DNA of 28,865 nucleotides, taken from NCBI GenBank assembly GCA_041548245.1, contig JBFESZ010000016.1:1-28865 (forward strand). Reading direction: 5' to 3'. Every line of letters starts with the position of its first letter. The stretch's first letter is position 1. The notes beneath the pieces are model-generated. The model searched no databases and was not told the origin of the DNA. It was given only the letters and a program-made list of their open reading frames with translations. This DNA is from Sulfurimonadaceae bacterium. GTDB lineage: Bacteria > Campylobacterota > Campylobacteria > Campylobacterales > Sulfurimonadaceae. This document shows positions 19,036-28,865 of this stretch, piece by piece. The position numbers and the translations under genes are program-made.

Positions 19036-19111
19036 GGTCCGTTAGCTCAGTTGGTAGAGCGCTACCTCGACAAGGTAGATGTCACAAGTTCAAGTCTTGT
19101 ACGGACCACCA
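19036..19111 (+). tRNA. tRNA-Val(GAC)
   Basis: GGTCCGT...ACGGACC-A-CCA. Anticodon arm CTACC-TCGACAA-GGTAG; GTTCAAGT T-loop; 76 nt. Confidence 0.95.
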
Positions 19112-27488: not shown

Positions 27489-28635
27489 GAAGCTTGTGAT
27501 CTTGGTATTCTTGTTCGTATACACAGCCTATGCTGAATTTGATTATAGTATTGAGAATACAAACTTTACAATCTCTCAAGATAGGTTGCGCCCAGATGAA
27601 AAGAAAGAGTCTTTTTATAATTATGACAGGCTACGTTTCCGAAGTGATTATGTACAAGAGAGTTATTTTACAACGATTATAGCGGATATGGTTAATTATC
27701 TAGGCTATGGGTATATCAACTCTGTATCACATACTATAGCAAAAGCTCAGAAGGCAGACACCCCTTTTGAAACGCAGAGCTCTTATCGTAACTATGGCGA
27801 GGGAGAGGCCTATGTCAAACTTTATAGGTTATATGGTGGATTCGAAGATGGATCAAATAGAGTTGTCCTAGGCCTGCAGAATATTACCATGGGTGTGGGA
27901 AGGATTTGGACGCCAAGTAATCTTTTTAATCCGAAAAATACTTATGCTTTTGAGCCTGATGAGGTTTTTGGCGTAGCTGCACTGACGTACACCATACATT
28001 TAAATGAGACATCAAACTTCACTGCCGTAGTTTCACAAAAGAGAGATAAGAGTTACAAATATGCATTACGGTACAAAAGTTTTTTAGAGTATGCAGATGT
28101 CGCTTTAAGTACAATCAGTTCTGATGATACCTCAATGCTGGCATATGAACTGGAGGGCAATTTGGCCGATACAGGGATAGAACTCAGGTCGGAAGGCACC
28201 TATATTAAGAGCAGTTTGAAGAGTCCGATGCTTCAGAATGAAGAGAAAGAGTTTTTTCAGGGGATTGTCGGAGCGGATTATGGGTTTGAAAACGGGTTGA
28301 CACTGGTTGCCGAGGCACTCTATAGCTCAGAGTCATTTGATTATGATCAGATATTATTGAACCTGCAGTCGGATGTTTTTTCTGATCTTCGCTACTCAAA
28401 GTTTTATCTGGGAACCACACTCTCTTACAGTCTGAATATCTTTTTAGATGCCTCACTTGTCTATATAGAGAGTTTTAATGAACATAACTCACGTTTCATA
28501 TCTCCTTCGCTCAGATATACACTGAATGATTTTAATACTTTTTCTTTGGGGGCTATGCTTAAAGATGGCCCTGGCGGGAGTGAGTTCGGAGATTTTGGTA
28601 ATAGTTACTATTTCAAGTACGTCTTCACCTTTTAA
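27481..28635 (+). CDS. Predicted outer-membrane beta-barrel protein
   Basis: Signal peptide MLKKLVILVFLFVYTAYA. Amphipathic Tyr/Phe-rich strands, a GLQ.I..G.GRIW.P...FNP segment and a C-terminal beta-signal YFKYVFTF. ATG 27481 is preferred over TTG 27475. Confidence 0.75.
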   Translation: MLKKLVILVFLFVYTAYAEFDYSIENTNFTISQDRLRPDEKKESFYNYDRLRFRSDYVQESYFTTIIADMVNYLGYGYINSVSHTIAKAQKADTPFETQSSYRNYGEGEAYVKLYRLYGGFEDGSNRVVLGLQNITMGVGRIWTPSNLFNPKNTYAFEPDEVFGVAALTYTIHLNETSNFTAVVSQKRDKSYKYALRYKSFLEYADVALSTISSDDTSMLAYELEGNLADTGIELRSEGTYIKSSLKSPMLQNEEKEFFQGIVGADYGFENGLTLVAEALYSSESFDYDQILLNLQSDVFSDLRYSKFYLGTTLSYSLNIFLDASLVYIESFNEHNSRFISPSLRYTLNDFNTFSLGAMLKDGPGGSEFGDFGNSYYFKYVFTF

Positions 28636-28670
28636 CACTTTGCAGGAGGCTTTTAATTTCAGATAAATTC

Positions 28671-28679
28671 TGATATAAT
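28671..28679 (+). promoter_or_regulatory. Extended -10 promoter for rpmI
   Basis: TGATATAAT matches TGnTATAAT, preceded by phased T-tracts. Confidence 0.7.
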
Positions 28680-28708
28680 TTCAAACTCATTTTACACTTC
28701 GGTGTAGA

Positions 28709-28801
28709 GTAACGATTTTCCGTTAAAGCTAACCTTACGGAAAATGGGAGCACCTTCGGTGCATTGGCTTTCCGCCAAGGAAAACCAAGTGTTAGCGTAG
28801 A
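28709..28801. other. 93-bp highly structured element in the rpmI leader (candidate palindromic repeat/MITE or structured RNA)
   Basis: Three hairpins plus a pseudoknot pairing GCTAAC/GTTAGC. Bounded by GTAGA direct repeats (28704-28708 and 28797-28801). Confidence 0.55.
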
Positions 28802-28851
28802 TCAAAGAATACATCTCTTTGTTCATAAAAAAACTATGAAAGGTCAAATCG

Positions 28852-28865
28852 ATGCCAAAAATGAA
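28852..28865 (+). CDS. rpmI: 50S ribosomal protein L35, first codons only (truncated by the window edge)
   Basis: SD AAAGGT 7 nt before ATG CCA AAA ATG AA = MPKM(K), the typical L35 N-terminus. rpmI normally follows thrS-infC. Only 14 nt are visible. Confidence 0.7.

Follow-up and report, generated by a model that had tools for sequence, protein, structure and literature searches.

The rpmI leader at the contig end

The window analysed here is a whole contig from a Sulfurimonadaceae bacterium (28,865 nucleotides, nt; JBFESZ010000016.1, here G000:C16), and its end falls 14 bases into the gene rpmI. In the leader of rpmI lies a structured element that is scattered by dozens in Sulfurimonas-like genomes, and we therefore regard it as an element of the mobile type and not as a control RNA specific to rpmI. 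It is probably a copy of a non-autonomous, structured and interspersed repeat family that has so far not been catalogued. The family is multi-copy, and its fold, made up of hairpins P2 and P3, a mini-hairpin, the motif GUAG and hairpin P4, is conserved on one strand. Copies are gained and lost among related genomes, at least one insertion having made a 13-bp target duplication, and the family occupies intergenic spacers in the bacterial family of the window and in at least two sister families of the Campylobacterales.

Upstream of the element, a -10-like box of the rpmI promoter (TG-n-TATAAT, 28671-28679, plus strand) can be read directly from the sequence, and comparison of relatives finds the box (GGTATAAT/GATATAAT) at equal distance in all 11 congeneric rpmI upstream regions; a two-hexamer promoter scan upstream of rpmI did not find a -35/-10 pair. 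Next comes a 5' leader hairpin, UACAC-UUCG-GUGUA, followed by GAGUAA (28690-28709, plus strand), which also belongs to the rpmI leader outside the element and is present in the minimum free energy (MFE) fold; its stem shows compensatory changes among both the filled (4) and the empty (7) rpmI leaders of the genus. The whole stretch of box, hairpin and GAGUAAU (28671-28709) is kept in 11/11 rpmI upstream regions of the genus whether the repeat is present or not, and this conserved part, not the repeat, is the candidate for a native feature of the leader with a role in control or stabilisation. On the other side of the element, the ribosome-binding site (RBS) GAAAGG (28838-28843) and the start of rpmI (ATG at 28852), cut by the contig end, occupy 28838-28865 on the plus strand; the start reads on as MPKMKSVKG.. 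in relatives, and from this N-terminus we take the product to be L35.

A BLAST comparison with 40 relatives gave 11 genomes of the genus (G000 included) with an rpmI upstream region, all of which share the -10 box, the 5' hairpin and the RBS. An insert of about 120 nt is found in only four of them (G000, G002, G006 and G013), while in the seven empty leaders the RBS stands about 10 nt after the 5' hairpin. With the insert the leader grows from about 40 nt to about 165 nt. The element would be a passenger at this locus: in part of the genus it landed in the rpmI(-rplT) leader, between the 5' hairpin and the RBS, and it is presumably co-transcribed in the sense orientation; at most it may tune the stability of the mRNA or the access of ribosomes to it. 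The MFE and the centroid fold both pair UUCAUA in the element tail with UAUGAA (28821-28840), which reaches the first bases of GAAAGG. The predicted hairpin is weak, of A and U, and specific to this genome, and could slightly mask the RBS.

An initial annotation, made from the letters of the window alone, had described a 93-nt unit at 28709-28801. The strings on which it relied are correct, namely the stem 28715-28723 / 28737-28745, GCTAAC at 28728-28733, GTTAGC at 28791-28796 and GTAGA at 28704-28708 and 28797-28801, and the stretch is GC-richer than the flanking spacer, as it had said (0.46 against 0.28-0.32). The folding energy of the locus is below that of shuffled sequences on both strands (z -2.65 on the plus and -4.18 on the minus strand). 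The limits of the unit, on the other hand, have to be redrawn, with a family-model match at 28742-28836, a core at about 28746-28826 and a further hairpin, P4 (28800-28824), that had been missed. The two GTAGA strings had been taken as unit boundary or target duplication. The left one is also present in the seven empty alleles and is therefore leader sequence and no target duplication, and the right GTAG is an invariant internal motif of the family. A pseudoknot between GCTAAC and GTTAGC is likewise not supported, GTTAGC being part of the family-wide mini-hairpin and GCTAAC lying in hairpin P1, which is outside the family model and is different in the three other filled leaders.

P1 (ATTTTCCGT / ACGGAAAAT at 28715-28723 / 28737-28745; whole feature 28710-28746, plus strand) is a locus-specific extension, and the other three filled rpmI leaders have a U-run/A-run hairpin of differing sequence in its place. 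A weak minus-strand match to the family model (28686-28770, 6.9 bits, E 0.022 in 366 nt) overlaps P1, which may possibly be a relic of an inverted partner copy; such an origin, hinted at by this match, would explain the complementarity of GCTAAC and GTTAGC.

Anatomy of the repeat unit

The segment from P2 to P4 was found again by BLAST at unrelated loci of relatives, which are not rRNA loci. A covariance model (R1) was built from 18 copies, and the window copy matches it with 83.2 bits; pairs were counted in alignments of 51 copies (A2) and of 98 copies from complete genomes (A3). The family unit begins with an A-rich lead-in ending in AAAG, followed by P2, a G, Y-G-R-G-C and the inner P3 stem, which has 4 bp and a GCYGA cap. 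Then come an invariant AA, C-N-N-A-G, a 2-bp mini-hairpin G-Y[GUUA]R-C, GUAG, P4, CGU and an A-rich tail. About 23 positions, situated at the junctions, are at least 90% identical across copies.

In the window the model match places P2 (GCACC-UUC-GGUGC) at 28750-28762 on the plus strand. Its stem varies among copies in sequence and length, with two main types, 75% of the cells being paired and 4/4 pairs changing on both sides. P3 follows at 28764-28788 on the same strand (TTGGCTTTCC-GCCAA-GGAAAACCAA), with an inner stem (28770-28773 / 28779-28782), the loop GCCAA (28774-28778) and the invariant AA (28783-28784); its inner pairs are 92-97% paired and show swaps between UA and CG. Both hairpins had been proposed in the initial annotation and are supported by covariation in the homologues. 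The GGC of P3 (28766-28768) has two partner options, either CC at 28785-28786, which gives an outer stem, or GCC of the loop (28774-28776). For the latter, in which R25-G26-C27 meets G33-C34-Y35, the pair R25:Y35 is GC in 62 copies, AU in 21, GU in 3 and other in 5, and is 98% paired in A2, while for the competing outer pair 25:45 the paired share is no more than 65-76%. Since the RGC:loop pairing is well kept and the outer one poorly, P3 would form either a very tight pseudoknot or an alternative hairpin.

The mini-hairpin (G-U[GUUA]G-C, 28789-28796) and the invariant GUAG (28797-28800) lie on the plus strand within 28789-28800, which reads GUGUUAGCGUAG in the window. Pair 49:54 of the mini-hairpin is UA in 47, CG in 45, UG in 5 and AU in 1 of the 98 copies and is unpaired in none, and pair 48:55 is GC in 94/98. 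As the mini-hairpin and the pairing of R25-C27 with the loop are absent from the search model, they provide evidence that is independent of it. GUAG (columns 56-59) stands directly 5' of P4, with G59 in 94/98 copies. P4, placed by the model alignment, extends from G28800 to C28824 with the loop at 28809-28815 and a tail CAU, where the family consensus is CGU (28800-28826, plus strand). Its pairs are 92.6% paired and 8/9 change on both sides; in the family the lower stem is variable and the apex conserved.

Over A3 as a whole, standard pairs fill 90.7% of the 2291 pair cells; shuffled alignments give 69.4 +/- 0.6, and 0/500 shuffles reach the observed value. The covariation score is 0.638 against 0.247 for shuffled alignments and at most 0.142 with partners slid, and 22/24 pairs change on both sides. 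Within the covarying pairs, counted on the plus strand, the ratio of G-U to A-C is 162:27 among 1899 cells in A3 and 78:12 among 974 in A2, and G-U makes up about 8.5% of the paired cells. G-U thus outnumbers A-C about six to one, from which it follows that the folding strand is the one that is sense to rpmI here. The initial annotation had preferred the minus strand on account of a C/A juxtaposition that would be G-U in that polarity; the juxtaposition is conserved in 88/95 copies but never covaries, so it says nothing on pairing.

The unit measures about 93 nt, and a long form of about 130 nt is found as well. The long form has an extra module of 37-43 nt after P3, consisting of a hairpin GCGGAAUUYCGC and GAGGACAAC (L117, L106, L121, L115, L136, L137 and L119, in G076/G041). 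Of two congeners, one has this module and the other lacks it at the orthologous copy, and two partial copies begin with it where P2 and P3 would stand.

Size and range of the family

With R1 at E<=1e-3, copies were detected in 90/101 genomes of the window's bacterial family, with about 990 matches in all and from none to at least about 40 per genome; 11/101 genomes are without. Five complete genomes hold 27, 26, 24, 17 and 30 copies (E<=1e-4). As the outcome that would make the element a ribosomal-protein leader, the initial annotation had named a single copy per genome, always upstream of rpmI; these matches and the 7/11 empty leaders are the opposite pattern. Of 151 genomes sampled over the phylum 11 have matches, with 6/6 in family f1, 3/4 in f20 and 1/1 in f4 and with 0/53 in f18 and 0/60 in f12, the two largest families of that sample. 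The taxonomic range given here refers to the sampled Campylobacterales. Confirmed members come from a Sulfurimonas sp. metagenome-assembled genome, from Sulfurovum mangrovi and from two IMG/VR contigs, and a corrected sequence pattern matches 80/184 collected loci and two viral contigs. BLAST against plasmid and phage records gave one Sulfurovum record, in which the element is unannotated, and none among the phage records.

The genome of the window has a second, degenerate copy (42 bits; G000:C8:35104-35199, L173 1505-1600), with a P3 lacking the GCYGA loop, and this copy is antisense to both of its neighbours, a branched-chain aminotransferase-like gene and an SPFH-domain-like gene. Units also stand in tandem, two or three together with a period of about 93-94 nt, and in head-to-head pairs at L031 and L067. 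Direct arrays were seen at L160 1501-1784 (G107, three units) and L071 1501-1687 (G238, two units), and the identity or near identity of the units in G107 suggests local duplication. The same spacers, between grpE and dnaK and upstream of coaE, are filled in different genera.

Two placements are unusual. In G027 a head-to-head pair with a 13-bp closing stem (L067 1417-1595; G027:C1:1649584-1649762) is inside the large-subunit (LSU) rRNA gene, about 560-740 nt from its start, and forms an intervening sequence that is made of the chromosomal repeat; the site is presumably the helix-25-type site of 23S rRNA. The other is a 71-bit copy on an IMG/VR phage contig (L183 5677-5771), situated between the gene for a head maturation protease and a divergent portal gene and adjoining the large terminase, that is, in a phage or prophage head module. 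Such a phage copy is a possible vehicle between hosts.

Known RNA families gave no match. Rfam 15 was negative for the element at gathering score and at E<=10 over window positions 28600-28865 and at E<=5 on 12 high-scoring loci, and at gathering score on 7 loci it found nothing at the element. This agrees with the suggestion of the initial annotation that the element could be an unclassified structured nucleic acid. None of the models for ribozyme classes (hammerhead, twister, twister-sister, pistol, hatchet, HDV-like and hairpin) matched at E<=10 over the window stretch or at E<=5 on the 12 loci, and the L20 leader model (RF00558) did not match over the window stretch at E<=10. In the titles and abstracts searched, a description of the whole unit was not found.

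Placement, insertion and turnover

The context of the copies was derived from crude open reading frame (ORF) calls. Copies sit in short spacers, where the neighbouring ORFs are 38 and 23 nt away at the median. In the complete-genome set, 32 copies between co-directional genes are sense and 28 antisense, with 15 copies between convergent and 13 between divergent genes; a ratio of 19:6 from an earlier top-scoring set is superseded by these counts. The absence of an orientation preference counts against a cis-acting role in mRNA. Sense and antisense copies are moreover equally intact in pairing (0.912 and 0.936, p 0.28) and in the core (0.951 and 0.949, p 0.57). Relative to replication, 59/100 copies have the leading orientation in a rough hand count with the origin assumed at coordinate 1, which indicates no strong bias.

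Coding capacity is not a property of the family. The initial annotation had observed that two minus-strand frames cross the element without a stop, and this is true in the window, but no frame is kept open across the family, the best one being open in only 65/134 copies. It had also compared the element with Rickettsia palindromic elements inserted in frame into genes. Here 0/98 complete-genome copies are in a credible ORF; 5/98 are crossed by long stop-free frames, and the four distinct crossing frames (one is common to an orthologous pair) matched no Pfam family. The more general proposal of a small non-coding repeated element has held up, with many copies, alleles of presence and absence and evidence of insertion.

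The clearest insertion is the copy at L119 (G076). It is absent from three complete congeners (G041, G085 and G092), which have a single copy of a 13-nt sequence that in G076 stands on both sides of a 135-nt insert. Flanking direct repeats of at least 10 nt were found at 11/145 distinct copies against 0/145 mismatched controls. Of the 11, three are the tails of neighbouring copies, one is ambiguous and seven are clean, with lengths of 10, 10, 12, 13, 13 and 14 nt and one of at least 33 nt. The duplications mostly start with an A-run in the orientation of the element, and the copies have ragged ends and an A-rich 3' flank. At the site of L105, G085 also has a copy, and the state in G041 and G092 is not clear. 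At L014, about 1420-1620 (G019:C14), a flanking duplication of about 33-45 nt with a hairpin and a T/A-run, much longer than the other flanking repeats, lies upstream of a gene start.

After insertion the copies appear to drift. In nine orthologous pairs from two congeners the element is 83.7% identical (632/755), compared with 83.8% at third codon positions. Between orthologous copies whole stems are swapped, linked core variants switch together and the 37-43-nt module is present or absent, which indicates replacement or conversion between copies and the existence of long and short forms.

A partner gene was sought among transposases, reverse transcriptases and neighbours. The Y1 transposase PF01797 is present in 50/101 genomes and uncorrelated with copy number, as G002, G042 and G041 have 28, 40 and 18 copies without Y1, while the copy-free G018 and G024 have 6 and 5 Y1 genes. 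A single-copy RAYT-like protein of 177 aa, which has an HxH motif and matches Y1_Tnp weakly (L167 1826-2359, G076:C1), is found in 21/101 genomes. None of 12 Y1 loci and 5 loci of the 177-aa gene (0/17) is flanked by a copy, the best score being 9.7 bits (E 0.34). The reverse transcriptase RVT_1 (PF00078) is found in 33/101 genomes, likewise does not follow copy number and is absent from the copy-rich G023, G042, G002 and G041 and from G076, the genome with the dated insertion. Clustering of 1534 ORFs from 124 loci revealed no recurrent neighbour gene, the largest cluster touching 5 loci.

What kind of element

The reading that we consider probable, a mobile-type repeat without its own enzyme, could be envisaged as follows. 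The element would spread selfishly, mobilised in trans by way of a strand-specific folded intermediate, which may be single-stranded DNA or RNA. An enzyme recognising this intermediate would cut A-rich spacers with a stagger of about 10-14 bp and insert it there, and later exchange between copies would reshuffle the stems.

Several observations weigh against this reading. Paired duplicated flanks are present at only 11/145 copies and only one clean pair of empty and filled sites was found; at L108 about 19 nt seem to have been replaced, without duplication, and at L109 a second repeat confounds the comparison. Inspection by eye of four duplication-bearing copies (L119, L150, L094 and L054) revealed no terminal inverted repeats. 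Within-genome identity has medians of 62-73% in four complete genomes and no copies reach 90% apart from one tandem pair, so that there is no sign of a recent burst. A mobilising enzyme was not found among the genes tested (Y1, RAYT-like, RVT_1 and neighbour families). The pair counts for P2, P3 and P4 lean toward the model, to which the alignments were fitted, and copies within one genome are related and not independent. Finally, some 23 near-invariant unpaired bases in copies that otherwise drift neutrally are more characteristic of functional RNAs or protein-binding sites than of ordinary miniature transposons, and this core would possibly be better explained by a host-serving RNA or by a mobile or catalytic nature at the RNA level.

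Among the alternatives, the element might be a GTAG-tagged REP/REPIN, a repeat in which such a tag stands beside an imperfect palindrome of 20-40 nt. GUAG and the P4 palindrome would then be cut and copied as single-stranded DNA by a single-copy Y1 transposase (RAYT), and P2 and P3 would be an added module. GUAG directly 5' of P4 in 94/98 copies would fit this, for the 3' third of the unit only, as would the head-to-head pairs and head-to-tail arrays, the G-T pairs in the stems, the intergenic location in both orientations and the variable copy number. Di Nocera et al. (2013) describe GTAG and CGTC repeats in Sulfurovum sp. NBC37-1 and note G-T pairing (PMC3733652); their GTAG family might correspond to the P4 part of the element. 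Against it, neither PF01797 (50/101) nor the RAYT-like gene (21/101) tracks the element and 0/17 of their loci are flanked by a copy. Target duplications are also present, one of 13 bp confirmed against three empty congeners and others of 10-14 nt. HUH/Y1 transposition is not known to leave target duplications of 10-14 bp. Nor does the hand count of 59/100 amount to a strong replication-strand bias, and we consider this explanation rather unlikely.

It is likewise unlikely that the element is a host-serving RNA module selected site by site, for example an entry site for RNase III or RNase J/Y, operon punctuation or an excisable rRNA intervening sequence. The near-invariant junction bases together with covarying stems across at least three bacterial families speak for such a function, and so do the share of G-U among paired cells, the occupation of the same spacers (grpE-dnaK and upstream of coaE) across genera, the inverted pair in the 23S rRNA gene and the location in short spacers inside operons. 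It is weakened by the even split of orientations with antisense folds equally intact, by a copy number that ranges from 0 to more than 40 within one family, 11/101 genomes having none, by the third-codon-position rate at orthologous sites and by the absence from 7/11 rpmI leaders.

Less probable still is an RNA-level mobile element or ribozyme, that is, a structured RNA which would cleave or ligate itself or recruit proteins and be copied back in a SINE-like manner by target-primed synthesis. Here a catalytic or enzyme-recruiting core would be made up of the near-invariant RGC:GCY, AA bulge, GUUA mini-hairpin and GUAG, and spread as a transcript would leave variable duplications with A-runs. 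This is in line with a conserved core amid variable stems, with the compact candidate pseudoknot RGC:GCY (95-98% paired, outside the model), with the high G-U frequency, with the variable and mostly A-run-initiated duplications (10, 10, 12, 13, 13, 14 and at least 33 nt), the ragged ends and the A-rich 3' flank, and with the tandem arrays. However, no known ribozyme family scores even at E<=10, and RVT_1, present in 33/101 genomes, is absent from the copy-rich G023, G042, G002 and G041 and from G076. The proposed pseudoknot, with loops of 1 and 2 nt, also looks sterically tight as judged from known pseudoknot geometry.

An autoregulatory leader of the rpmI-rplT operon, which would mimic the L20 site of 23S rRNA, is highly improbable, for although the element is strongly structured and lies in sense between the promoter and the RBS of rpmI, a feedback site for L20/L35 at rpmI is excluded by its multi-copy, dispersed occurrence and the 7/11 empty congeneric leaders, Rfam gave no match to the L20 or any other family, and BLAST with the element found no rRNA site (short matches elsewhere are not rRNA).

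Comparison with known repeats

In lifestyle the mobile-type repeat proposed here would come closest to the REP/REPIN and ERIC repeats. Like REP/REPIN, the element is short, non-coding and intergenic in both orientations, has an invariant GTAG directly 5' of a covarying hairpin that tolerates G-T, occurs as singles, head-to-head dimers and tandems, and shows genome-specific sub-families and copy numbers from 0 to dozens (PMC3733652). In contrast to them, its unit is three times longer, with two further hairpins, the mini-hairpin and about 23 conserved unpaired bases; it is neither flanked by nor co-occurring with Y1/RAYT among the genes tested, it makes target duplications, and its copies number tens, not hundreds.

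ERIC repeats, structured sequences about 100-130 nt long, lie in transcribed spacers in both orientations, and many genomes have about 20-30 of them. They are conserved in different genera, encode no transposase themselves and exist in long and short forms owing to internal indels. The element resembles them in being structured, in its forms of about 93 and 130 nt, in its location in spacers in both orientations and in that no transposase was found, which is a likeness of lifestyle only. It differs in being a string of separate hairpins on one strand, where ERIC is one long imperfect palindrome, and in duplications of 10-14 bp as opposed to the TA of ERIC, and it presumably has no relation to ERIC in sequence.

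Miniature inverted-repeat transposable elements (MITEs) such as Correia, RUP and Nezha are small and non-autonomous, make target duplications and lie in spacers, where they are co-transcribed with their neighbours. The element shares the non-autonomy, the small size, the target duplications and the location in spacers. Unlike MITEs, it has no terminal inverted repeats by eye in the four copies inspected, its duplications vary in length in what is a small sample, a parent insertion sequence was not found, and its copies are old and diverged. Palindrome-associated elements derived from IS200/IS605 have sub-terminal hairpins, no duplication, a strong bias to one replication strand and a TnpA in the genome; they are set apart from it by its target duplications, by the rough count of 59/100 leading copies and by the lack of correlation with Y1. 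Rickettsia palindromic elements are, like it, short structured repeats without coding capacity of their own, but they lie in frame in protein genes.

The 23S rRNA intervening sequences of Campylobacterales and other bacteria are classically described as rRNA-specific inserts. The inverted pair of G027 also interrupts an LSU rRNA gene, yet it is built from a repeat that is otherwise chromosome-wide. The repeat ties a 23S intervening sequence and a phage genome to the chromosome, which offers a hypothesis for how intervening sequences originate and travel. Structured leaders upstream of rpmI are also known in the L20 leader and in the operator pseudoknot of E. coli rpmI. The element shares their position and is likewise a structured leader, but it is not gene-specific, is not conserved within the genus and matches no model.

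With about a thousand detected copies, this is an uncatalogued family of structured repeats in environmentally dominant sulfur-oxidising bacteria. Such repeats can pass for riboswitches or leaders, and they break metagenome assemblies; the window contig itself ends about 40 bases after the copy. The element unites RNA-like covariation and an invariant core with indifference to the transcribed orientation and with target duplications in the absence of inverted ends, and it has no partner gene. Such traits are not usually found together, and identifying the mobiliser could therefore reveal a new route of mobilisation.

Other features

A second, unrelated interspersed repeat of about 120-190 nt adjoins the element copy at 294122 in G076:C1 (L109, about 1598-1817) and matches 11-14 places per genome in G041, G085 and G092. 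In the window, five tRNA genes form a minus-strand cluster at the contig start (69-642) and one more lies at 19036-19108, and both contig ends are in or beside repeated or conserved sequence.

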